A stretch of 52,542 bases of DNA from Bacillota bacterium (GTDB lineage: Bacteria > Bacillota > Clostridia > Christensenellales > UMGS416): contig JAEYRA010000155.1 in the NCBI GenBank assembly GCA_023409755.1, positions 1-52,542 of the forward strand. Direction: 5' to 3'. Within the stretch, counting starts at the first letter, position 1. Each line of letters starts with the position of its first letter. Positions 303-11,707 of this stretch are shown here, in pieces. The position numbers and the translations under genes are program-made. Under the pieces are notes generated by a model. It ran no database searches. It had not been told where the DNA came from and was given only the letters and a program-made list of their open reading frames with translations.

Positions 303-2345
303 CTATTGTATGAATACGACCCGAGCATCGTCTTGTTCAAGCCGCACAGTGATCCGCAAGCGGCTTGAGGGGGTGAACTCCCAGGAGTCAGCGCCATTCA
401 CTCCAGTAAACATCTCCCTATTGACTGGGTCTGTAATATACTCAAACACGCCGCTGCCTCTCGTAAAGAAGCAAATCACGCCTTTGGCGGCCTGTAGATC
501 AAGCTTAGCATGGATCTCCGGGCTGGAACCCAAGAAGCCCTTTGTTTTTGCGGCATTGGCAGTGACATATGGCGCGACTGCTTTGTATTGCTCGAGTGTA
601 TCGCGGAACAATGCGATTCCTTCGGCATCCATTGCGGAGAGATCTCCCCAGATACCATTACCTCCCAGTACAAGGGAAGCCAATGCATTTCGTTGTGCCT
701 TGGCAGGTCCGTCAGGCAAAAAATGCGTCAGGAACAGGATTGATGGGATGAAACTGTCATACTTAATCCCTTGTCTGCAAACACGGCCTCTCGCAGCACC
801 TGGATGAAAGAACACATTGATTGTGTCCGGCAGACGCTTATGCTCTGGAGGGATATCAAAACTGCTGAAATATGGCCCATTGTTCATTAGGAAATACTTC
901 CCGACAGATAGAAAGCCCAGTCCGACGAAACGACCGCCTTCCGTAATATCGAAATCAACAATTGCGTCTGGGCAGACCTTGGAAACCTCCTCAACAATGC
1001 GGATCATTTCCAGGCCCATTTGATAGCTGTAACAATCCAGCCTCTCTTGCGGAGAATTTTCCTGCGTCCCATGATCATGGTTGGGAGAATTACAACCATA
1101 TTGACCAATGGCATCCCATTTAAAATAAGTAACGCCCAACTCTTGATACAGGCGCACCATTGTTTTAATGAAATGATCGGCGTAGCCAGATGCCAGGCAC
1201 ATCCCCCAGCTTTCCTCGGTCTCCCAAATCTTTCCCCAGTAATTTTCTTTGCCATCAATACTCATCCGGTACTCCGGGTGCTCGGTATTGATCCGAGACG
1301 AATCAGCAGCAACGATCGGGTTAAACCAAAGACCCAACTTCATGCCATACTTGTCAAGCTTCTTCCGTACTTCTTGCATGCCATCGGGAAAGCGCTCCTG
1401 GTTAATGACCCAGTCACCTGTCCGGATAAACCATCCAGTATCGATTACGAATACATCAACCCCCATCGCTGCAGCTGTGTCGATTTCTGCAAGGGTGTGC
1501 TGCAGGTTCATGGAATGTAAGTAGGGCAGGTTGTGGTAATACCGGTTTCGCTCCTGTTTATTCCAAGTGTTGTAGAAGATATACGGCTTGCGTGATTCAG
1601 TGTTTTCTGAGATAAACCGCAGGAAGAATTCACGGTAATGGCAGAACAGGGTGTCGCGGCTGCCTGTGCAGCCAAGAACATGAAACCAAGGTGATTCCAG
1701 AGGATGCTCCTTGTCAATGCTCTGGCCGTTGTAATAATTCCCTTTTCTGGCATGGATGGAGATAGCTGTTTGTTCATCATACTTCCTTGCTTTGAACATC
1801 AGATAGGAGTCTGGATATTCAGCGCCGTGTTCATAAGCCATTAAGCAGCAATATCCCTGTGTTTCTGCCAAAGCGATTGGGCCAGGGAATTGTATCCCCT
1901 CCTCAAGTTCTGATTCGGTTTTCAAATCAAAAGTTGGCAGAAAGGAATGGACGATGGTGTCAAACTGGCTTAATAGAATCTCTGTTAAGTCAACTTCCCC
2001 ATTGAAGCAAAGCCCTGTATAAAGGATATTGTCTTCTCCCATGCTTTTTGTAAGCGTGGCAGATTCGCAGCAATCCAAACGATAGCGAAACCGTGCGACG
2101 GGAGAATTGGGAAAGGTTCTGCATATGATCGTCAAGCGGAATGGCCCATGGATGTATTGATACTGTACTTCACGCCCACCGTTTTGCAAATCCCTTAACA
2201 ACGATACCCCAGCAGATACCCAGGATTGACCGCCGATGGTTTGACCGTTTGCTTCATAGACCGGTTCTTTCAGATTGATTACAAAATCGTCAAAATGCAA
2301 GGATAAAAATGCACCATCTTTATCATTGATAACCACAGTTGACAT
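303..2345 (-). CDS. Glycoside hydrolase family 36 alpha-galactosidase-like protein
   Basis: 680-aa ORF with ATG at 2345 and TAG at 303-305. RBS-like GAAAGGA sits upstream. The motifs VFVIDTGWF and YFKWDAIG are typical of GH36/GH27 clan-D alpha-galactosidases. The gene is visibly more AT-rich than its neighbours. Confidence 0.85.
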   Translation of the reverse strand: MSTVVINDKDGAFLSLHFDDFVINLKEPVYEANGQTIGGQSWVSAGVSLLRDLQNGGREVQYQYIHGPFRLTIICRTFPNSPVARFRYRLDCCESATLTKSMGEDNILYTGLCFNGEVDLTEILLSQFDTIVHSFLPTFDLKTESELEEGIQFPGPIALAETQGYCCLMAYEHGAEYPDSYLMFKARKYDEQTAISIHARKGNYYNGQSIDKEHPLESPWFHVLGCTGSRDTLFCHYREFFLRFISENTESRKPYIFYNTWNKQERNRYYHNLPYLHSMNLQHTLAEIDTAAAMGVDVFVIDTGWFIRTGDWVINQERFPDGMQEVRKKLDKYGMKLGLWFNPIVAADSSRINTEHPEYRMSIDGKENYWGKIWETEESWGMCLASGYADHFIKTMVRLYQELGVTYFKWDAIGQYGCNSPNHDHGTQENSPQERLDCYSYQMGLEMIRIVEEVSKVCPDAIVDFDITEGGRFVGLGFLSVGKYFLMNNGPYFSSFDIPPEHKRLPDTINVFFHPGAARGRVCRQGIKYDSFIPSILFLTHFLPDGPAKAQRNALASLVLGGNGIWGDLSAMDAEGIALFRDTLEQYKAVAPYVTANAAKTKGFLGSSPEIHAKLDLQAAKGVICFFTRGSGVFEYITDPVNREMFTGVNGADSWEFTPSSRLRITVRLEQDDARVVFIQ

Positions 2346-2685: not shown

Positions 2686-4080
2686 TTACAGGAACAGATC
2701 CCGCTCTCCCGCACGCATGCGCTTGAGCTTGTCCTGCACAGTGGCACGCAGCCGGCCGTCCGTGATGGCTGCCACCTCCCGCTCGATGAGTTTGCTGCCC
2801 ATGTCGTTGAGCTCGGCGTCGCCGTAATCGAGCATGTACTCCTGCAACGTCAGCAGGGCGTTGGGGGTGCAGACGTTCTGGATCTCCCCACTGCGCGCAA
2901 GAGCCATGAACCGGTCGCCGGTGCGGCCCTGACGGTAGCAGGCCGTGCAGTAGCTGGGGATGTAGCCGTTCTCAATGAGATCCTTGATGACCTCCAGCGG
3001 CCGCCGCTCGTCGGAGAGTTCAAACTGATCGGTGTTGACGCGTCGGCCCTGGGCCGTGGCTTCCTCCTGCTCGTGGTAGCCGCCGATGCCGGTGCTGGAG
3101 CCGGCGCTGACCTGAGAGACGCCGTAGCGAAGCAGCTCATCGCGCATGGCGGCACTCTCCCGGGTGGACATGATGATGCCGGTGTAGGGCACGGCGATGC
3201 GGAGGATCGCCACCAGATGCCGGAACGTCTCGTCGTCCACGAGGTTGGGGAAGTCAGCAAGGCTCATGCCTTCGGCCTGCTTCAGGCGCGGCATGCTGAT
3301 GGTGTGGAAGCCCACGCCATAGGTCTGTTCCAGGTGGTCGTTGTGCATCATCAGGGCCAGCGCCTCATACCGCGGGTCGGCCAGGCCGAAGAGCACACCC
3401 GCGCCCACGTCCTCAATGCCGGCCTCCATCGCCCGGTCAAAGGCCGTCAGATGGTACTCGTAGCTGCTCTTCCGGCAGTGGGGGTGCATGGCCTCATAGG
3501 TCGGCTTGTGGTATGTCTCCTGAAACAGGATGTAGGTGCCGATGCCCTTGTCGTGGAGCATGCGGTACTCCTCCACCGTGGTGGCGGCAATGTTCACATT
3601 GACCCGGCGAATGCTGCCGTTGTCGAGCTTGGTCTCGTAGATGGCGTCCAGCGCCTCCAGAATGTACTCAATGGGGCAGTTGACCGGGTCCTCCCCGGCC
3701 TCCAGCGCCAGGCGCTTGTGGCCCATGCGTTCCAACGCTCGTACCTCAGCCTGAATTTCCTCGCGTGTCAGTTTTTTACGCGGCATGGCGTTGCAGCGCT
3801 GGTAGCCGCAGTACACGCAGTTGTTCACGCAGTGGTTGGAGACATAAAGCGGCGCAAACAGCACGATGCGGTTGCCGTAGATCTTCCGCTTGATCTCCCC
3901 GGCGACGGCGTACAGCCGGGCCATCAGATCCGGCTCGTCCACGTAAAGCAGCGTCGCGATATCAGCATGATTGAGCCGTTCGCCGCGCTCGGTCTTCTCC
4001 ACGGCGGCGGTTTTTGTTGCCACGGTCGCGCCGGCGGCGTCGGCCAGCAAGCCTTCAATGTACCCTTGATCAATGAACAT
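2686..4080 (-). CDS. hydG: [FeFe]-hydrogenase maturase HydG (radical SAM tyrosine lyase)
   Basis: Radical-SAM motif CVNNCVYC and C-terminal cluster motif CTACYRQGRTGDRFM...NVCTPN (CxxCx22C). The start is trimmed from the track ORF to ATG 4080, which is preceded by GGAGGA. It overlaps the hydE stop by 11 nt. Confidence 0.93.
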   Translation of the reverse strand: MFIDQGYIEGLLADAAGATVATKTAAVEKTERGERLNHADIATLLYVDEPDLMARLYAVAGEIKRKIYGNRIVLFAPLYVSNHCVNNCVYCGYQRCNAMPRKKLTREEIQAEVRALERMGHKRLALEAGEDPVNCPIEYILEALDAIYETKLDNGSIRRVNVNIAATTVEEYRMLHDKGIGTYILFQETYHKPTYEAMHPHCRKSSYEYHLTAFDRAMEAGIEDVGAGVLFGLADPRYEALALMMHNDHLEQTYGVGFHTISMPRLKQAEGMSLADFPNLVDDETFRHLVAILRIAVPYTGIIMSTRESAAMRDELLRYGVSQVSAGSSTGIGGYHEQEEATAQGRRVNTDQFELSDERRPLEVIKDLIENGYIPSYCTACYRQGRTGDRFMALARSGEIQNVCTPNALLTLQEYMLDYGDAELNDMGSKLIEREVAAITDGRLRATVQDKLKRMRAGERDLFL

Positions 4081-5107
4081 CCTTCGTCCTCCAATCCAAA
4101 TGGTCGCCCCTCGCGCTGGAGAGCACATACCCGACCTTCTCCACCCGCCGTTCCAGGCAGCGGCGGCATTCGGCGGCTTCGTCACCGGTGCAGATCTTGT
4201 TGTCATACAGCAGGTATTTCTTTCGCACGTCGGTGGGCGAAAGGTTGGGCATCACCACATTCCCCCCGGCGGAGAGTACCCTCTCCCGCCCGAAGGGGTC
4301 GAGGGTGCCCACGGCCGTGGTGGCCGGCAGCAACGCCCGGGGCAGCATCAGCCGCACCATGGCCACCAGCAATACCGTCTGCTCCACACTGCCGGCCGGT
4401 GCGGCGGCCAGCGGCGTGTCGTGGTGCGGGATGAACGGACCAATGCCCACCATGGCCGGTTGCAGCTCCCGCAGGAAGATGAGATCATCAGCCAGCGTCT
4501 CGGGCGTTTGGCCGGGTGAACCCACCATAAACCCCGCGCCGACCTGGTAGCCGATGTCCTTCAAATCCCACAAACAGCGCTTACGGTTGGCAAGGCTCAT
4601 GTCCTGTGGGTGCAGGCTGGCGTAGTGGGCGTCGTTGGCCGTCTCGTGCCGCAAGAGATACCGGTTGGCCCCGGCGTCATAGAGCCGCTGGTAGGACGCC
4701 CGGCTGCGCTCCCCCAGCGAGAGGGTGATTGCACAATCCGGGTACCCAGCGCGGATGGCCCCAACGACGGCGCACAGGCGATCGTCGGTGTACCACGGGT
4801 CCTCCCCGCCCTGCAGCACGAAGGTGCGGTACCCCAGCTCATAGCCCAGGGCGCAGCACTCGAGGATCTGCTCCTCGCTCAGCCGGTAGCGCTCCGCCTG
4901 ACCGTTGCTGCGGCGGATGCCGCAGTACAGGCAGTCATTTTTGCAGTAGTTGGTACACTCAATGAGCCCGCGGGTGTAAACCTCCAACCCATACTCCTCG
5001 CGCTTGACGCGGTCGGCGGCGGCCAAGACCTCCCGCCGGGTGCCGTCGTCAATGTGGGTCAGGAAGTCGGCCAGCTCCCTACGGGTCATGGCGTTGAAAT
5101 CAACCAT
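4070..5107 (-). CDS. hydE: [FeFe]-hydrogenase maturase HydE (radical SAM)
   Basis: Carries CKNDCLYC radical-SAM motif and a BioB/HydE-like TIM barrel sequence (FVLQGGEDP, GFMVGSPGQT). The start is trimmed to ATG 5107, in an ATGGTTGA overlap with the hydF stop. Confidence 0.92.
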   Translation of the reverse strand: MVDFNAMTRRELADFLTHIDDGTRREVLAAADRVKREEYGLEVYTRGLIECTNYCKNDCLYCGIRRSNGQAERYRLSEEQILECCALGYELGYRTFVLQGGEDPWYTDDRLCAVVGAIRAGYPDCAITLSLGERSRASYQRLYDAGANRYLLRHETANDAHYASLHPQDMSLANRKRCLWDLKDIGYQVGAGFMVGSPGQTPETLADDLIFLRELQPAMVGIGPFIPHHDTPLAAAPAGSVEQTVLLVAMVRLMLPRALLPATTAVGTLDPFGRERVLSAGGNVVMPNLSPTDVRKKYLLYDNKICTGDEAAECRRCLERRVEKVGYVLSSARGDHLDWRTKDVH

Positions 5108-6332
5108 TGATGCCCTCCTCCCAGGCCAGGCGAGCCAGCGGGAACGGCTCCAACACCCGGGGCAGAATGCCCTGCACACAGGCGATGAGCACGCCGTAGT
5201 TGACGATGGGCACCCCGGCTGACCGTGCTTCGGCAAGTCGGGTTTGCATCTCGGCGCGGTTGAGCATGCACGCGCCGCAGTGCACCACCAGGGCGAAGCG
5301 GTTGAGGTCCTCTGGGTAGGTCATGCCGGCGGTGAAGGAAAAGCGGAGTTCCCGGCCCGTCATCTCCCGTAGCCAGCGCGGAATCTTCACCCGGCCAATG
5401 TCGTCAGCCTGCTGGTGATGGGTGCAGCCCTCAGCGATGAGCACCTCGTCGCCGTCCTTGAGGCATGCAATGGCCCGCGCGCCCAACACCAGCTGCTCCA
5501 GGTCGCCCTTGTACCGCGCGAACAGGATGGAGAAGCTCGTCAGCATCACATCCCGCGGCACATCGGCTGAGACTTTCAGGAACACCTGGGAGTCGGTGAC
5601 GACCAGTCGGGGTTTCTCCCCCAACAGGGCGAGGGTGCGGCGCAGCTCATGCTCCTTGGTCACCAGGGCCACGGCGTCGTTCTCCAGCACATCACGGATG
5701 ACCTGCTGCTGGGGCAGGATGAGCCGGCCCTTGGGCGCGGCTTTGTCGATGGGTGTCACCAGCACCACCACGTCGCCGGGGCGCACGAGGTCGCCCAGCA
5801 ACTTCAGTCTGCCCTCCCCGGTGGGTGCAGCCCCGGCGATGGCCTGGCGCAGGCCTTCCACCCCAAGGCCGGTGGCGGCGGACACCACGTGCACCGGTAC
5901 GCCCAGCGCTGCCCCCAGCACCGCCACGTCCACCGGGCCTGTGTCGGCCTTGTTGGCCACCACCAGTACCGGCAGTTTCTTGGCCTGCAGACGGGTTAAG
6001 ATGTCCCGGTCGGCGTCCGTCACACCAAAGCTTCCATCCAGCACCAACACAGCCAGGTCGGTGCGGCCCAGCACAGCCATCGTCTTGGCCACGCGCTTGT
6101 CCCCCAGTTCCCCCTCGTCATCGAGCCCAGCGGTGTCAATGAGCACGCAGGGGCCCAGCGGCAATATCTCCATGGTCTTGTAAACCGGGTCGGTCGTGGT
6201 GCCGGCCACGTCGGAGACGATGGCTGCCTGCTGGCCCGTCACGGCGTTGATGAGGCTCGATTTGCCGGCGTTGCGCCGCCCGAAGAAGGCGATGTGAAGC
6301 CGTTCGGCCTTTGGGGTTTGGTTCATCGTCAT
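5100..6332 (-). CDS. hydF: [FeFe]-hydrogenase maturation GTPase HydF
   Basis: P-loop GRRNAGKSS and the DTAG motif. C-terminal FeS-binding motifs are CTHH ... HCGACM. RBS GGAAGGAGA lies 5 nt before ATG 6332. Confidence 0.92.
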   Translation of the reverse strand: MTMNQTPKAERLHIAFFGRRNAGKSSLINAVTGQQAAIVSDVAGTTTDPVYKTMEILPLGPCVLIDTAGLDDEGELGDKRVAKTMAVLGRTDLAVLVLDGSFGVTDADRDILTRLQAKKLPVLVVANKADTGPVDVAVLGAALGVPVHVVSAATGLGVEGLRQAIAGAAPTGEGRLKLLGDLVRPGDVVVLVTPIDKAAPKGRLILPQQQVIRDVLENDAVALVTKEHELRRTLALLGEKPRLVVTDSQVFLKVSADVPRDVMLTSFSILFARYKGDLEQLVLGARAIACLKDGDEVLIAEGCTHHQQADDIGRVKIPRWLREMTGRELRFSFTAGMTYPEDLNRFALVVHCGACMLNRAEMQTRLAEARSAGVPIVNYGVLIACVQGILPRVLEPFPLARLAWEEGING

Positions 6333-7744
6333 GGCTGTCTCCTTCCAGTCCGCCCCGGCACCCCGGGTCGGGTCAGGTCATTGAGGGTGAAGATGCGCTC
6401 CACGGTCTCCGCCGACAGGCCCGATTCCGCCAGCGCCACCTGCCGTAGGGTGCAGCCCGTCGCTTGTGCCGTGTGGGCCAGCTCCGCTGCCCGGTCGTAC
6501 CCCACATGGGCGATGAGGGCTGCTGCCGCCGCGGTGGAGTGCTCCAATGTCGACCGGCAGCGCTCGGCGTCCACCTCAATGCCACGGATGCAACGCTCGG
6601 TGAGCAGCGGCACCGCCGCGCAGAGCAACTCCAGCATGTCGAGCAGGCTATCAGCGATGAGAGGCAGGAAGGCATTCAACTCCAGCTGCCCCATGCCCGC
6701 CGCTGACGTCACCGCCCCGTCGTGGGCGATGACCCGCAGCGCCACCTGGGTCACCATCTCCGGCAGTACGGGGTTGACCTTGCCGGGCATGATGGAGCTG
6801 CCAGCTTGCACCGCGGGGAGTTTCAGCTCCGCCAGCCCGCCCGCCGGGCCGCCGGCCAGCAGCCGCAGGTCACCGCAGAGCTTCAGCAGCGTGGCGGCAC
6901 AGGCCTTGAGGAGCCCCGACACCTCCACGTACACATCGGCGTTCTGGATGGCATCCATCGGTGACTCGGCCCGCGCCAGCCCCAGCCCCGTGGCCTGCTG
7001 CAGCAGATCGGTCACGCGGTAGGTGTAGGCCGGCGGGGCATTCAAGCCGGTGCCGATGGCCGTGCCGCCGATGGGAATGACCCGCAGCCGCTCCTCCGCC
7101 TTGTAGATGCGCCAGCGATCCCGCGCCACGGCCTGGGCATAAGCCCCGAAGCCCTGCCCCACACGCATGGGCAGCGCATCCATGAGCTCGGTGCGCCCTA
7201 GGCGCGCCACGGTGTCAAACTCGCGTTCCTTGGCCTGCAGTGCCTCCTGCAGGGCGGCAAGTGCATCGGCCAGCCGCCGCACGAGATGGATGGCCGCAAT
7301 GCGCAGCGCCGTGGGCACCACATCGTTGGTGGATTGGGAGTAATTGACGTCGTTTACGGGATGCACCAGGGCGTAGTCACCCTTCTGCCCGCCCAGCAGC
7401 TCGATGGCGCGATTGGCCACGCACTCGTTGACGTTCATGTTGAGCGACGTGCCCGCCCCGCCCTGCAGGCTGCTGGTGGCAAGGTCCTGGGCCGCCAAGC
7501 CGCCCAGCAGGTCGTCGCAGGCCCGGGCGATGGCGTCGGCTTTATCAGCCGCCAGCAGGCCGGCCTGGCCGTTGGCCTGGGCCGCCGCCCGCTTCACCAC
7601 CAGCATGGCGTCGATGAGACACCGCTTCACCGGCGGGGCGGGAAGGTCAAAATTGAGCTGCGCCCGGCGGGTGTGGATGCCGGCGTACCCCGCGGCTTCC
7701 ACCGCAAGTTCGCCCAGCGAATCCTGCTCCATGCGCGTCAGCAC
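6329..7744 (-). CDS. Class II lyase of the aspartate ammonia-lyase/fumarase family (hyd-operon associated)
   Basis: Carries the GSSIMPGKVNP signature loop. GTG start at 7744 sits 9 nt after AAGGAGG and one base after the upstream stop. Its stop overlaps the hydF start. Confidence 0.85.
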   Translation of the reverse strand: MLTRMEQDSLGELAVEAAGYAGIHTRRAQLNFDLPAPPVKRCLIDAMLVVKRAAAQANGQAGLLAADKADAIARACDDLLGGLAAQDLATSSLQGGAGTSLNMNVNECVANRAIELLGGQKGDYALVHPVNDVNYSQSTNDVVPTALRIAAIHLVRRLADALAALQEALQAKEREFDTVARLGRTELMDALPMRVGQGFGAYAQAVARDRWRIYKAEERLRVIPIGGTAIGTGLNAPPAYTYRVTDLLQQATGLGLARAESPMDAIQNADVYVEVSGLLKACAATLLKLCGDLRLLAGGPAGGLAELKLPAVQAGSSIMPGKVNPVLPEMVTQVALRVIAHDGAVTSAAGMGQLELNAFLPLIADSLLDMLELLCAAVPLLTERCIRGIEVDAERCRSTLEHSTAAAAALIAHVGYDRAAELAHTAQATGCTLRQVALAESGLSAETVERIFTLNDLTRPGVPGRTGRRQP

Positions 7745-7745
7745 G

Positions 7746-8000
7746 TCACTCCACCTCCTTTTTGGAGATGGATGTCTTGATGGTGACGTACGGGATTGCC
7801 CCGAGTTTCCCCGTCAGGCTGTTGATCTCATTGACATCACTCAGAACGACGATGGAAATGACCGCCAGGTCCTCCTCGGGCATGGGGATACCCATGCGGC
7901 CCTTCACAATGCCCTGAAACCCCGACACCACGGCATTGAACTGCTGTTGGCACAGGTTCGGCTTCTCCAGAATGGCGCTGACGACGGCAACTCGCTTCAT
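7746..8000 (-). CDS. Small TM1266-like putative iron-only hydrogenase system regulator (ACT/NikR-C-like fold)
   Basis: 84 aa starting MKRVAVVSAILEKP...GIVKGRMGIPMPEEDLAVISIVV. This matches my recollection of the small regulator family co-occurring with hydEFG. The start is trimmed to ATG 8000, preceded by GGAGGGG. Confidence 0.75.
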   Translation of the reverse strand: MKRVAVVSAILEKPNLCQQQFNAVVSGFQGIVKGRMGIPMPEEDLAVISIVVLSDVNEINSLTGKLGAIPYVTIKTSISKKEVE

Positions 8001-8014
8001 ATTCCCCTCCCACA

Positions 8015-8048
8015 ACAAAAAAGGCCTCCCCGTGTGGACGGGAAGGCC
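8015..8048 (-). terminator. Leader terminator (attenuator) immediately upstream of the hyd operon RBS
   Basis: Minus RNA is GGCCUUCCCG-UCCACA-CGGGGAGGCC followed by UUUUUU. It ends ~14 nt before the RBS of the first hyd-operon gene and lies downstream of the only promoter-like element. Confidence 0.65.
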
Positions 8049-8178
8049 GCGCAAACGCAAAAAGAACACGCGCAGACCGATGGCTCGCGTTGTTTCCTTC
8101 CGAATCAGCTCATGGCTTTTCCGTCAGTCCGGGTTGTTGGCAGGCCGGCAAAGGCATCCCTCGGCCAGCTGCACAATG

Positions 8179-8207
8179 ATTGTATGCGAGCCAAAACAGA
8201 TTGTCAA
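8179..8207 (-). promoter_or_regulatory. Sigma-70-type promoter for the hyd operon leader
   Basis: On the minus strand, TTGACA (8207-8202), a 17-nt spacer and TACAAT (8184-8179). This predicts a ~170-nt 5' leader. Confidence 0.6.
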
Positions 8208-8225
8208 GGTTTTGACAATATTGCT

Positions 8226-9974
8226 TTACTGGTCAAAATCCGCCTGCCCGGCGAACTGGCTTTCATAGAGCCGGGCATATTGGCCTTTGGAGTGCAGCAG
8301 CTCGTCGTGGTTGCCGCTCTCCACCACCCGGCCACCCTCCATCACGAGGATCAGGTCGGCGTTGCGCACGGTGGACAGCCGGTGCGCGATGACGAAACTG
8401 GTGCGCCCCTGGGTCAGCCGGTCGAAGGCCTTCTGCACCCGCTGCTCGGTAAAGGGGTCGATGGAGCTGGTCGCTTCATCGAGGATGAGCATGGACGGGT
8501 TGGCCAGCATGACCCGCGCGATGGCCAGAAGCTGCATTTGCCCCTGGGAGAGGGTGCCGCCCTCACCCTGGATCACGGTGTCATAGCCATGCTCCAACCG
8601 GCGGATGAAGCCATGGGCCCCCGCCTGCCGGGCGGCTTCCATCACTTCATCCATCGTGGCGTCGGGCCGGGCGTAAGCGATGTTGTCGCGGATGGTGCCG
8701 TCGAAGAGCCAGGTGTCCTGCAGCACCATGCCAAACTGGCGGCGCAGGCTCTCCCGCGTCAGGTGACGGATGTCCACCCCGTCCACGAAGATAGCGCCCT
8801 CGTCCACGTCGTAGAATCGCATCAGCAGGTTAACGAGTGTCGTCTTGCCCGCACCCGTCCGCCCCACGATGGCGACCTTGCACCCGGGGTGGATGTCAAG
8901 GTTCAGGCACTGGATGAGGGGCCGTGCGGGGTCATAGGCGAAGGCCACATCCCAGAAGCGCACATGACCGGTGCAGCACCCCAGCTCGATGGCCCCCTCC
9001 GCCTCGGGCGGCTCGGGCTCTTCATCCATCAGGCGGAAGAGCCGCTGGGCCGATGCCCCGGCGGCCTGCATCTGGCTGAGGATGCCGGTGATGTCGCTGA
9101 AGGGCTTGCCGAAGAGCACGGAGTAGATGACGAAGGCGGAGATCTCGCCCACCGTCACATGGCCGCGGATGGCCCACAGGCCGCCGATGAGACCGATGGC
9201 CGCGTAGGCGATGTTGTTGACAATGCGGGTGGATGGGTTGGCCAGGGAGGAGATGAACTGCGCCTTGACGCCGGTGCGGTAAAGGTCGGCGTTGATGCCG
9301 GCAAACCGCTCGGCAGCCTTCCCCTCGTAACCAAAGGCCTTAACGACCCGCTGCCCCTCAATCATCTCCTGCGCCAGGCCGTTGAGCTTACCCAGGTGGC
9401 CTGCCTGCTCGCGGAAGGCCTGCTGGGAGCCTTTGGTGACAAAACGCGCCACATAGTACGCCGCCGGGGCCGAGAGCACCACCACCAGCGTCATGTTGCC
9501 GTTGACGGCCAGCATGAATCCCACCGCGCCCAGCACCGTCAACACCCCCTGCAGCAGCGCCACCAGGCTTTGCAGCAACCCATCGGTCACCACGTCCACG
9601 TCGTTGACAAAGCGGCTGACGGTGTCTCCCCGGGCGGTGCGGTCAAAGAACTTCAATGGGAGGATCGTCAGCCGCTCAAAGAGCTGCTGACGCAGGCGGG
9701 CCGTGGTGCGGTAGGCCACGCGGTTGGTGAGCAGCGACAGCACCCAAGTAAACAAGCTGTTGGCCAGGTACAGCCCCACCAGCAGCGCCAGCGTACGCCC
9801 CAGCAGGGCAACGTCCACCTGCCCGGCCTGGGCCAAGCCATCCACAGCCCGGCCCACCACAGCCGGGGCCACCAATGCGGCCGCCACGGCAATGACAGCA
9901 CTGAACAGCGAACCCGCCAACAGGGCCTTCGATTCACCCAGATAGCGCAACAGACGTGCAAATGTACTCTTCAT
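8226..9974 (-). CDS. ABC exporter, fused permease/ATPase subunit (heterodimer partner B)
   Basis: Six-TM N-terminal domain. Walker A GRTGAGKTT, signature LSQGQMQLLAIAR, Walker B ILDEATS. ATGA overlap with the upstream partner. Confidence 0.9.
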   Translation of the reverse strand: MKSTFARLLRYLGESKALLAGSLFSAVIAVAAALVAPAVVGRAVDGLAQAGQVDVALLGRTLALLVGLYLANSLFTWVLSLLTNRVAYRTTARLRQQLFERLTILPLKFFDRTARGDTVSRFVNDVDVVTDGLLQSLVALLQGVLTVLGAVGFMLAVNGNMTLVVVLSAPAAYYVARFVTKGSQQAFREQAGHLGKLNGLAQEMIEGQRVVKAFGYEGKAAERFAGINADLYRTGVKAQFISSLANPSTRIVNNIAYAAIGLIGGLWAIRGHVTVGEISAFVIYSVLFGKPFSDITGILSQMQAAGASAQRLFRLMDEEPEPPEAEGAIELGCCTGHVRFWDVAFAYDPARPLIQCLNLDIHPGCKVAIVGRTGAGKTTLVNLLMRFYDVDEGAIFVDGVDIRHLTRESLRRQFGMVLQDTWLFDGTIRDNIAYARPDATMDEVMEAARQAGAHGFIRRLEHGYDTVIQGEGGTLSQGQMQLLAIARVMLANPSMLILDEATSSIDPFTEQRVQKAFDRLTQGRTSFVIAHRLSTVRNADLILVMEGGRVVESGNHDELLHSKGQYARLYESQFAGQADFDQ

Positions 9975-11707
9975 GCCCGCGCCTCCTCTCCCACCTGCTG
10001 GGAGGCGCAGATCTCCCGATAGGCCTCGCAGGTGCGCAGAAGTTCATCATGGGTGCCCACACCGGCCAGCTTACCATCCTCCAGCACGAGGATGCGATCG
10101 GCCCCCCGCACCACCGACACCCGCTGGGAGAGGAGCAGCACCGTCCGTGTCCCCTCCATCCGGCGGATGGCCGTGCGCAGCCGTGCGTCGGTCAGGTAGT
10201 CGAGCGCGCTGGATGCGTCATCCAGAATGAGGATCTCCGCCTGGGCGGCCAGGGCCCGAGCAATCGTCAACCGCTGCCGCTGCCCGCCGGAGAGGTTCAC
10301 CCCGCCCCGCTCCACCGGAGAATCGTACCCCTGGGGCAGCGTAGCGATGAACTCATCGGCCTGGGCGGTGGCGGCGGCCGTTCGCACGCCGTCGTCATCA
10401 GCCTCCCCCGCCCAGCGGATGTTCTCCGCCACCGTGCCGCCAAAGAGCGTGGCCTTCTGGAAGACAATGCCAATCTTGCGCCGCAGGGCATCGGCGGCAT
10501 ACTCCTCCACCGGCACACCATCCACCAGCAGCGTGCCGGATGTCACCGGGTAGAAGCGCGGGATGAGCTGGCCCAGCGTCGTTTTGCCCGCACCGGTGCC
10601 GCCGATGATGCCCACCGTCTCCCCACGGGCAATGGAGAACGATAGATTCTCAAGAGCCAGGTCGCCGCCGATGTGGTAGCCGAAGGACACATCCCGGAAC
10701 TCGATGGCCGGGGCATTGGTGATGGGCACAGACGGTGTGGCCGTGCCCGCAGCTTCGGTGGCCTCCACCGGCTCGTGCAGCACCTCGTTGACCCGTGCCG
10801 CCGAAGCCATGGACTTGGTGAGGAGGATGATGAGGTTGGAGAGCACCAACAGTGCCGCCAGAATCTGACTGGCGTAGTTGATGAACGCGATGATCTGCCC
10901 CTGGGAGAGGCCCCCCGCCTGCACCCGGCCGCCGCCCACCCACAGGATGAGCACGATGAGCCCATTGACGACCAGCGACGTGAGCGGGTTGAAGAGCGCC
11001 GACACCGTGCCGATGGCAAAGCCGTTGCCCATGAGCTCCCCATTGACGGCGGCAAAGCGCTCCTTTTCCTGGGTGTTCTTGGTGAAGGCGCGGATGACCC
11101 GCACACCGGCCAAGTGCTCTCGAAGCACGTTGGACAGGCGATCGAGCCGCCCCTGGTAGGCGCGGTAGAGCGGTCCCGCGGCCTTTGTGATGAAGAAGAT
11201 GATGGCCGCCAGAAGCGGCGTGGCCGCCACCAGCAGAAGCGCCAGCCGTGCATCCAGCAGGAATGCCATGAGGATCGACCCCAGCAGGATGAACGGCGCG
11301 CGGGACACCAATCGGATCATCATCGCCACCCACACCTGCAGCTGGTTGACGTCGTTGGTCAGCCGTGTCGTCAGCGTGGGGGCGCCGTAGCGGTCCATCT
11401 GCGGGAAGGAGAAGGTCAGGATCTTGGCAAAAAGCGCATTGCGAAGGTCGGTGCCGAAGCCCTGGGATGCCTGGGCGGCGTAGCGCTGACACACCGCGGC
11501 GCAGCCAAAGCCCAGGCAGGCCAACCCCGCCATCACAAGGCCCATGCGCACGACATAGCCGCCATCGCCCCGCCCCACGCCATTGTTGATGATGAGCGCC
11601 AGGATGGTGGGCAGCAACAACTCGAAGATGACCTCCGAAAACTTGAACAACGGCCCCAGAATGCATTGTTTCTTATATTTCTTGAGGAAGACCGCCAGCT
11701 CCAGCAC
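9971..11707 (-). CDS. ABC exporter, fused permease/ATPase subunit (heterodimer partner A)
   Basis: Walker A GGTGAGKTT, signature LSGGQRQRLTIAR, Walker B LILDDASS. GTG start at 11707 is preceded by GGGGG with a 7-nt spacer. Confidence 0.9.
   Translation of the reverse strand: MLELAVFLKKYKKQCILGPLFKFSEVIFELLLPTILALIINNGVGRGDGGYVVRMGLVMAGLACLGFGCAAVCQRYAAQASQGFGTDLRNALFAKILTFSFPQMDRYGAPTLTTRLTNDVNQLQVWVAMMIRLVSRAPFILLGSILMAFLLDARLALLLVAATPLLAAIIFFITKAAGPLYRAYQGRLDRLSNVLREHLAGVRVIRAFTKNTQEKERFAAVNGELMGNGFAIGTVSALFNPLTSLVVNGLIVLILWVGGGRVQAGGLSQGQIIAFINYASQILAALLVLSNLIILLTKSMASAARVNEVLHEPVEATEAAGTATPSVPITNAPAIEFRDVSFGYHIGGDLALENLSFSIARGETVGIIGGTGAGKTTLGQLIPRFYPVTSGTLLVDGVPVEEYAADALRRKIGIVFQKATLFGGTVAENIRWAGEADDDGVRTAAATAQADEFIATLPQGYDSPVERGGVNLSGGQRQRLTIARALAAQAEILILDDASSALDYLTDARLRTAIRRMEGTRTVLLLSQRVSVVRGADRILVLEDGKLAGVGTHDELLRTCEAYREICASQQVGEEARA

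Follow-up and report, generated by a model that had tools for sequence, protein, structure and literature searches.

Terminator/antiterminator switches in leader RNAs are a known kind of regulatory element, and the general features of three described groups are relevant here. In the PyrR attenuators of the Bacillus subtilis pyr operon, a binding-site hairpin acting as anti-antiterminator, an antiterminator and a terminator are mutually exclusive, and the bound state leads to termination; the regulator is encoded by the first gene after the first leader, and the site recurs between later genes, one of them a transporter gene. In OFF riboswitches such as preQ1-I and SAM-I/S-box, the 3' strand of a covarying sensor is shared with the antiterminator, one sensor is combined with both terminator platforms and platforms that sequester the Shine-Dalgarno sequence (SD), and the regulon mixes biosynthesis and uptake genes. 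TRAP for the trp genes and HutP for the hut genes are small, oligomeric, amino-acid-activated proteins that bind leader RNA and control termination and, elsewhere, translation; the TRAP regulon includes a membrane transporter gene, and hutP is located directly upstream of its RNA target. The present study concerns a leader on the minus strand of a 52,542-nt stretch of DNA from a Bacillota bacterium (contig JAEYRA010000155.1; the whole stretch is hereafter called the window), in which it precedes the [FeFe]-hydrogenase maturation operon TM1266-aspA-hydF-hydE-hydG. As judged by sequence comparison, this leader is a real, widespread and conserved cis-regulatory RNA across many Clostridia, and it is most likely an OFF-type attenuator.

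In function the leader resembles each of these groups, and with its first gene it would share the features given above, but the element belongs to none of the OFF riboswitch, PyrR, TRAP and HutP families and represents a new family within the known terminator/antiterminator kind. PyrR has a phosphoribosyltransferase fold, whereas the protein of the TM1266 family encoded by the first gene has an ACT/NikR-C fold and its RNA binding is only postulated; the RNA motif also differs from the PyrR site in sequence and shape. Unlike preQ1-I and SAM-I/S-box, the sensor is a hairpin made irregular by two 2x2 internal loops; it contains neither a multi-helix junction nor a pseudoknot and has no match in Rfam 15. 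TRAP and HutP recognise spaced NAG triplets instead of a structured hairpin, and their folds are unrelated to that of TM1266.

The comparison with Rfam 15 (4227 models) at gathering threshold gave no match in the window, and the E-value mode returned only terminator look-alikes for the leader (isrD, BTnc201 and mmgR, E 0.16-0.57). No leader match at E<=0.1 was obtained from 11 diverse homologous loci either. An earlier annotation made from the window sequence, hereafter the first-pass annotation, had failed to place the leader in a known riboswitch class, and the cmscan results for the window and the 11 loci agreed with it. A T-box was rejected, as no T-box match was obtained and neither a specifier nor a T-box sequence was visible. 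No published description was found in the literature on TM1266, riboswitches of hyd genes, hydrogenase-linked structured RNAs and Term-seq, and the word hydrogenase was absent from the papers of the Breaker laboratory on the GC-IGR pipeline. The literature also yielded no transcript data for this organism or its relatives.

Sensor hairpin, antiterminator and terminator of the leader

For the comparative analysis, 33 homologues of TM1266 were aligned and 80 loci, one per species, were taken from a genome collection. Metagenome contigs were in addition scanned with a degenerate DNA pattern of the core hairpin, not selected by gene, which gave 120 loci. A set of 42 core segments was aligned by MAFFT without structural input (alignment A3), and the covariance model built from A3 (R1) was then used to score the metagenome pattern matches.

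The core had the consensus 5'-CCU-RA-CNNN-NN-AG[loop]CU-NN-NNNG-RA-AGG, consisting of three short helices and two 2x2 internal loops. In A3, 95% of the cells were paired and the observed covariation score was reached by none of 500 shuffles, while the slid-partner controls decreased the pairing to 29-47%; the result was also obtained with 68 model-aligned matches. The outer helix P2a was composed of C-G, then C-G, U.G or U-A, and then U-A. Internal loop 1 was always made of purines only, being RA/RA in all of the 42 sequences. The 4-bp helix P2 started with an invariant C-G pair and contained the covarying pairs 9-41 (AU 22, GC 12, GU 7), 10-40 (GC 20, AU 17, GU 5) and 11-39 (AU 28, CG 6, UA 5, UG 2); the fourth covarying pair of the core was 16-34. 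In P3, invariant A-U and G-C pairs were followed by covarying ones, and the terminal loop was variable. Loop 2 was AA/RA or GA/GA in 29 of the 42 sequences and varied between clades. The hairpin is pseudo-two-fold symmetric, as the unit CURAY-NN-RRAAG occurs twice and the two copies pair with each other; its two RA/RA loops are 4 bp apart.

R1 gave only one match in the 52-kb window (8093..8130, minus strand, 36.3 bits). There, P2a is formed by C8127-G8097 and U8126-A8098, loop 1 by G8125.A8099 and A8124.G8100, P2 by 8123..8120 with 8101..8104, and P3 by 8117..8115 with 8107..8109, and A8119 and A8118 stand opposite G8106 and A8105 in loop 2. Matches of at least 31 bits were present in 63 of 81 sources, including Clostridium, Oscillospiraceae, Epulonipiscium, Acidaminobacter and other groups. 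Two loci (L016 and L051), both below the reporting threshold of R1, had variant cores with CAGGAA in place of GRAAGG in the 3' strand, and in L016 loop 1 was apparently replaced by Watson-Crick pairs (CCUG/CAGG).

The leader occupies the 225-nt intergenic region that follows two ABC-exporter genes (minus strand, 11707..8226) ending at 8226. Read along the minus strand, its parts are a palindrome, the promoter, a hairpin named P1, a short linker, the core, a spacer hairpin with a U-rich run, the terminator, and the ribosome-binding site (RBS) with the ATG (Table 1). The first-pass annotation had described the promoter TTGACA-17-TACAAT, a strong terminator with U6 between this promoter and the RBS, and no space for a second promoter, and had concluded that the operon depends on conditional read-through. 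All of the elements listed there were found on the minus strand, at the annotated positions or a few bases off. The promoter was present with 11 of 12 matches, and transcription would start near 8172. The terminator hairpin GGCCUUCCCG/CGGGGAGGCC at 8048..8023 has 11 pairs, 8 of which are G-C, and a folding energy of -20.6 kcal/mol, and U6 follows at 8022..8017. Only 16 nt separate the U-run from the ATG, which leaves no space for a further promoter. In 2 kb, the promoter scan returned 2 promoter-like sites where 0.5 would be expected, and promoter-like boxes were located directly upstream of the leader in the homologous loci too.

In shuffled sequence, a loose terminator scan would return 1.4 sites of this kind per 2 kb, so that a single hairpin is not beyond chance, and the folding z-score of the leader was only -2.1 when compared with shuffles. 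The leader terminator stands above chance because it is conserved, as a terminator was present between the motif and the start codon in 60 of the 61 homologous leaders used for the counts of terminators and of the Rex-like boxes described below. The homologous upstream regions also kept the same order of parts, namely a promoter, a hairpin with an apical AGAG/CUUU stem, the string CCURAC...AG[hairpin]CU...GRAAGG, a variable hairpin and a terminator.

The antiterminator that had been suggested from the GGAAGG segment was supported by compensatory changes across lineages. In the window, GGAAGG at 8101..8096 pairs perfectly with CCUUCC at 8046..8041, and the pairing is extended by CGCG at 8089..8086 with the CGCG immediately 5' of the terminator stem; the total is -15.6 kcal/mol. 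In every lineage, the 3' strand of the core, GRAAGG, had its complement in the terminator 5' arm, this arm being CUUUCC, CACCUUU, CUGCCUU or CUCUCUUUC depending on the lineage; lineage-specific partners were GAAAGGUGA with UCACCUUU, GAAAGGCA with UGCCUU, and GAAAGGGAG with CUCUCUUUC. The mean antiterminator pairing in 59 leaders was -12.6 kcal/mol for strands of the same locus, when compared to -9.0 kcal/mol for strands of different loci and -7.0 kcal/mol for shuffled strands. None of 2000 permutations reached the own-locus mean, and the antiterminator is therefore kept by compensatory evolution.

The spacer hairpin was common to the window and its closest relative (L001), and the spacer was variable in the other loci and lineages. 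From its sequence, the spacer hairpin of the window is possibly a first, weaker terminator upstream in the same leader. In another locus (L090, around 1290-1480), a long tandem hexamer repeat of the TAGTAT/TAGCAT type filled the spacer from the core motif to the terminator.

A different expression platform was found in Peptostreptococcus (L041 and L032) and in L148, which had no terminator and in which GRAAGG itself served as the SD for hydG or hydF, at 8-10 nt from the ATG. TM1266 and hydE were located upstream of the motif in L041 (motif at 4538-4586) and L032 (motif at 1654-1691). The terminator-type and the SD-type arrangements would share one logic, in which the closed hairpin means that the gene is off. 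In Acidaminobacter-type leaders, the 3' arm of the terminator included the SD. In seven leaders (L038, L046, L048, L075, L079, L080 and L019), the 3' arm GAAAGGGAGG, within about 40 nt of the start codon, was the RBS and the start codon came 7-8 nt after the U-run, so that a single hairpin could block both transcription and translation. No start codon (ATG, GTG or TTG) was found at SD distance after GRAAGG in the terminator-type leaders inspected (the window, L010 and L013), and leader-peptide attenuation was rejected on this ground.

The anatomy and its conservation, the covariation in sensor and antiterminator, and the association with genes were shown by the analysis. An architecture of sensor hairpin, antiterminator and terminator in which the closed sensor corresponds to OFF is very probably real. 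The leader would set the share of transcripts from the promoter at 8207..8179 that reach TM1266-aspA-hydF-hydE-hydG. An effector would hold the hairpin at 8130..8093 closed, making GGAAGG unavailable, upon which the terminator at 8048..8017 would form and transcription would stop before the RBS. If the hairpin is not stabilised, GGAAGG and the following bases would pair with the 5' arm of the terminator, and the resulting antiterminator would allow read-through by RNA polymerase. In the few relatives in which the core strand is the SD, the closed state would block translation instead. We infer both the direction of switching, from effector to OFF, and the direct binding of a small molecule that is considered below.

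The GGCCG...CGGCC helix that had been pointed out in the first-pass annotation proved to be a real helix, but it is the accessory hairpin P1; the actual sensor is the 38-nt hairpin at 8130..8093, which holds GGAAGG. In the P1 alignment (A5), 10 of the 13 pairs showed compensatory changes, 87.9% of the cells were paired, and the score was reached by none of 500 shuffles. The apical stack of G-C, A-U and G.U was near-invariant, with the G.U pair in 32 of 37 sequences. The P1 model R2 matched the window at 8137..8175 with 20.1 bits. The closest relative, L001, differs from the window at five places in P1, and the helix stays paired in spite of each. The conserved G.U pair speaks for P1 as an RNA helix and against a DNA operator; the latter was rejected also in view of the G.U and U.G variants used at several positions. 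R2 found P1 in 14 of 23 leaders followed by TM1266 and then Hyd genes, but in none of the 18 leaders belonging to other types. In L148, the core is preceded at a distance of 7 nt by a Rex-like box, which leaves no space for P1. As P1 is not universal and has no room in L148, the core is the minimal unit and P1 is accessory. Docking of the P1 loop, as a GNRA tetraloop, into a receptor in the core was also considered and rejected, as the loop was variable and did not covary with the GA/AA variants of the core. The conservation of the leader in related hyd operons, which the first-pass annotation had proposed to check, was thus seen as a conserved covarying motif (A3, A5 and R1).

Genes associated with the motif

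The motif was indeed the leader of hyd operons, as annotated at first, but it was not restricted to them and was found before transporter genes as well. The gene association was counted on the 47 non-redundant R1 matches of the metagenome set with at least 31 bits and 500 nt or more of sequence downstream. In 41 of them, the motif was directly followed by TM1266, Hyd maturase genes, an ABC transporter of the SsuA family or a gene resembling an ECF S-component. TM1266 followed by Hyd maturase genes accounted for 23 matches, and hydE, hydG or hydF without TM1266 in front for 9; TM1266 followed by an ABC transporter, the ABC transporter itself, and TM1266 followed by a membrane protein of about 185-200 aa accounted for 3 each. 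A TM1266 match was present in one of these nine matches without TM1266 (L151), so the true count without TM1266 is about eight. The other six matches had none of these genes, and at least three of them lay in apparent coding sequence without a terminator nearby, being therefore probably chance matches. In 29 of the 47 matches, the motif had TM1266 as its first downstream gene, across three operon types (Hyd, ABC transporter and ECF S-component).

Proteins were assigned with Pfam and NCBIfam profiles. The binding protein of the transporter was NMT1/THI5-like and matched an SsuA-family profile with 201 bits against a cutoff of 163.5, and the relatives of the membrane protein belonged to PF12822, named ECF transporter S components. 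Importer operons comprising a permease, an ATPase and the SsuA/NMT1-like binding protein were located behind the motif in L114 (about 5624-8272, on the strand of the motif), L169, L081, L131/L149, L173, L179 and L172, some with a TM1266 gene in front and some without. In L172, hydE and hydF came before the transporter in one string of genes. In L131/L149, the open reading frame (ORF) starting 267 nt after the motif had a TM1266 frame that continued without a stop into the binding protein of the ABC transporter, at its lipoprotein signal peptide, which is either a fusion or an artefact of assembly or frame. In L195 (motif at 9032-9068), L199 and L103, the motif and a terminator were followed by TM1266 and the ECF S-component-like protein of about 185-200 aa, and the 4-7 kb searched downstream contained no hyd genes.

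Six contigs carried the motif with no TM1266 gene within 3-13 kb (L102, L177, L198, L169, L114 and L081), and TM1266 occurred without the motif in L033, L035, L056, L060, L068 and L073. These motif-less genes were from Terrisporobacter, Intestinibacter and related Peptostreptococcaceae, with no hyd genes within 3 kb, and such stand-alone genes imply that the TM1266 protein has a life outside the switch; the genomic context of the Terrisporobacter genes was uninformative. In L041, L032 and L090, the motif was located between an upstream TM1266 and hydE or hydG.

Candidate effectors of the switch

The first-pass annotation had offered a metabolite-sensing RNA and autoregulation by the first protein of the operon as effector ideas, and these remain the two live ones. 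It had also taken this protein for a small ACT-like putative regulator. The protein was assigned to the TM1266 family by TIGR03959 (83.2 bits, cutoff 60.8) and PF21699 (77.1 bits, cutoff 27). The AlphaFold2 model of the protein (pLDDT 96.4) had its best match in a fold search of the PDB with 2NZC (TM-score 0.90), followed by NikR C-domains and ACT domains. The predicted structure has an ACT/NikR-C-like regulatory-domain fold with neither an enzyme motif nor a DNA-binding domain. The entry 2NZC holds four chains, and TM1266 is probably oligomeric. TM1266 itself is called a putative regulator, and a structure of it has been available since 2006. Pfam and NCBIfam gave only PF21699 and TIGR03959, with no homology to PyrR, TRAP, HutP, BglG/CAT or ANTAR, and the fold search gave no relative of known RNA-binding function. 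The mean isoelectric point (pI) of the family was 7.2 and the net charge about 0; attempts to infer RNA binding of TM1266 from sequence or structure were uninformative.

We prefer the reading in which the RNA itself would bind the effector, a small molecule or ion, at a probability of roughly 0.45. Direct sensing by the RNA is favoured because one core carries two kinds of expression platform, because the motif is partly independent of TM1266, because TM1266 has a neutral pI and lacks RNA-binding relatives, and because the regulon mixes biosynthesis and uptake genes, as is typical of metabolite riboswitches. Somewhat more tentatively, the hairpin could be the aptamer of a new riboswitch class, whose ligand would be a metabolite or ion not yet connected with H-cluster assembly. 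The regulon of such an orphan riboswitch would comprise the H-cluster maturases, TM1266, the SsuA-like ABC importer and the ECF S-component, and the substrates of the SsuA-like binding protein and the S-component probably point to the ligand. Several points weigh against the predicted direct binding. The sensor is small and simple and its loop 2 varies between clades, while a riboswitch usually shows its strongest conservation in the ligand pocket. The pseudo-two-fold symmetry would suit the binding of an oligomeric protein no less than of a small molecule, and the first position of TM1266 in three operon types is unusual for a riboswitch. It is also hard to name one metabolite that would repress both the H-cluster maturases and two importers.

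It is possible, although we would not call it probable, that the same RNA switch has the TM1266-family protein as its effector and is an autoregulated, protein-dependent attenuator, comparable to PyrR at the pyr leaders or TRAP at the trp leader. An oligomer loaded with its own small-molecule ligand would attach to the pseudo-symmetric hairpin, perhaps to P1 as well, and keep the hairpin closed, leading to termination or SD sequestration. TM1266 comes first after the motif in the gene-unselected matches whatever the rest of the operon encodes, and the loci with the motif between TM1266 and hydE or hydG are arranged like hutP-hutH and pyrR-pyrP. The regulatory-domain fold and the four chains of 2NZC also speak for a protein effector, as do the symmetry of the RNA with its two closely spaced RA/RA loops and the finding of P1 only in leaders followed by TM1266 and Hyd genes. 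On the other hand, no relative of TM1266 is known to bind RNA, the fold search having led to NikR C-domains and ACT domains, the family is close to neutral, six contigs have the motif without TM1266, and TM1266 genes exist without the motif. Another effector, such as a different trans-acting protein, a small RNA, temperature, or the speed or pausing of RNA polymerase, with the hairpin as a folding or pause element, is unlikely. The anatomy alone does not name the effector, the purine-rich GRAAGG strand resembles an SD, and the Rex-like operator already gives a physiological signal at the promoter; however, the invariant non-helical purines of loop 1 and the invariant closing pairs point to specific recognition, a single core serves two expression platforms, and the missing start codon after GRAAGG argues against a leader peptide.

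All of these readings accept the leader as a switch, and it is very unlikely that the hairpin at 8048..8017 is instead the plain terminator of the upstream ABC-exporter genes, with the hyd genes transcribed from an unrecognised promoter or by constitutive leak-through. No other terminator lies between the ABC stop codon (8226) and the hairpin, and the loose terminator scan was not significant alone. Nevertheless, the order of promoter, P1, core and terminator was kept before TM1266 and hyd genes with different upstream neighbours, and a role as the end of the ABC operon only was rejected on this evidence. In L001, whose TM1266 is 99% identical to that of the window, the upstream flank diverges just upstream of the palindrome. 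The covariation of the terminator 5' arm with the core strand and the short distance from the U-run to the ATG also stand against this explanation.

How HydE, HydF and HydG assemble the H-cluster has been the subject of intensive chemical study. The regulation of the maturase genes is much less described, and nothing beyond predicted Rex sites was found on it in the literature. A conserved RNA switch that links the maturases to TM1266 and two uptake systems provides a concrete experimental handle on this regulation. The RNA is short enough for in-line probing and crystallography, the regulon narrows the candidate ligands, and Faecalispora sporosphaeroides DSM 1294 and Clostridium thermopalmarium DSM 5974 are cultured carriers. 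Either outcome would be new, being an orphan riboswitch class or the first RNA-binding attenuation protein of the ACT/NikR-C type. Direct sensing by the RNA, if true, would bring to light a nutrient or an intermediate required for H-cluster maturation, and TM1266 would gain a function. From the viewpoint of hydrogen production engineering, the leader probably acts as a so far unrecognised brake on the expression of the maturases.

Rex-type operator and genes of the operon

The promoter carries a candidate operator for Rex, the NADH/NAD+-sensing repressor. The pattern TTGTNAA-N4-TTNACAA was derived from the Rex sites listed in PMC5886521, in which a Rex site upstream of hydG was predicted and Ravcheev et al. 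were cited for the same. The palindrome of the window, a perfect inverted repeat at a hydrogenase-related promoter, showed 12 of 12 matches to this pattern. Rex-like boxes with at least 10 of 12 matches, such as TTGATAAAATATTAACAA and TGTGATATTATTCACA, were present at the promoters of 33 of the 61 homologous leaders, when compared to 38 of 1240 background windows (3%). As the -35 box is half of the palindrome, a redox-responsive layer, predicted here from the sequence alone, probably also acts at the promoter through Rex. Unlike the RNA switch, this operator is a separate promoter element at the DNA level; the Rex part is already known biology, layered onto the new RNA element. The palindrome also explains the plus-strand promoter-like match of the promoter scan.

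Table 1. Features of the leader and the hyd operon in the window
Feature	Position	Strand	Remarks
Rex-operator-like palindrome TTGTCAAAACCTTGACAA (TTGTCAA-N4-TTGACAA)	8218..8201	.	Overlaps the -35 box
Sigma-70-type promoter TTGACA-17-TACAAT	8207..8179	minus	11/12 matches
P1, 5'-terminal hairpin, G+C-rich	8172..8140	minus	Conserved apical (A)GAG/CUU(U) stem and conserved G.U pair
Core sensor hairpin, 38 nt	8130..8093	minus	A3 covariation and R1 match
Antiterminator strand, GGAAGG and downstream CGCG	8101..8086	minus	Pairs with 8041..8055
Spacer hairpin ACGCGAG...CUGCGCGU, then UUCUUUUU (U-rich run)	8090..8059	minus	Read from the sequence
Intrinsic terminator	8048..8017	minus	11-bp stem, 4-nt loop, U6
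RBS GGGAGGGG (8012..8005) and ATG at 8000	7998..8012	minus	First gene
TM1266-family protein, 84 aa	8000..7746	minus	PF21699 E=1e-21; TIGR03959; candidate trans-acting factor
aspA-like lyase	7744..6329	minus	Aspartate ammonia-lyase subfamily, 579 bits
hydF	6332..5100	minus	HydF domains
hydE (ORF)	5236..4070	minus	TIGR03956, 550 bits
hydG (ORF)	4206..2686	minus	TIGR03955, 615 bits

AspA provides the nitrogen of the dithiomethylamine (DTMA) bridge in maturation (PMC11736057), and the whole operon therefore serves H-cluster assembly. For hydE and hydG, the longest ORFs share about 137 nt with the genes before them. As the family matches begin at residues 48 and 65, respectively, the true start codons of hydE and hydG are probably located further downstream. 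In a contig of a Clostridiaceae metagenome-assembled genome (L022), a TPP riboswitch (697-808, minus strand, 73.9 bits) was detected about 2 kb upstream of the hyd leader, to which it is unrelated.

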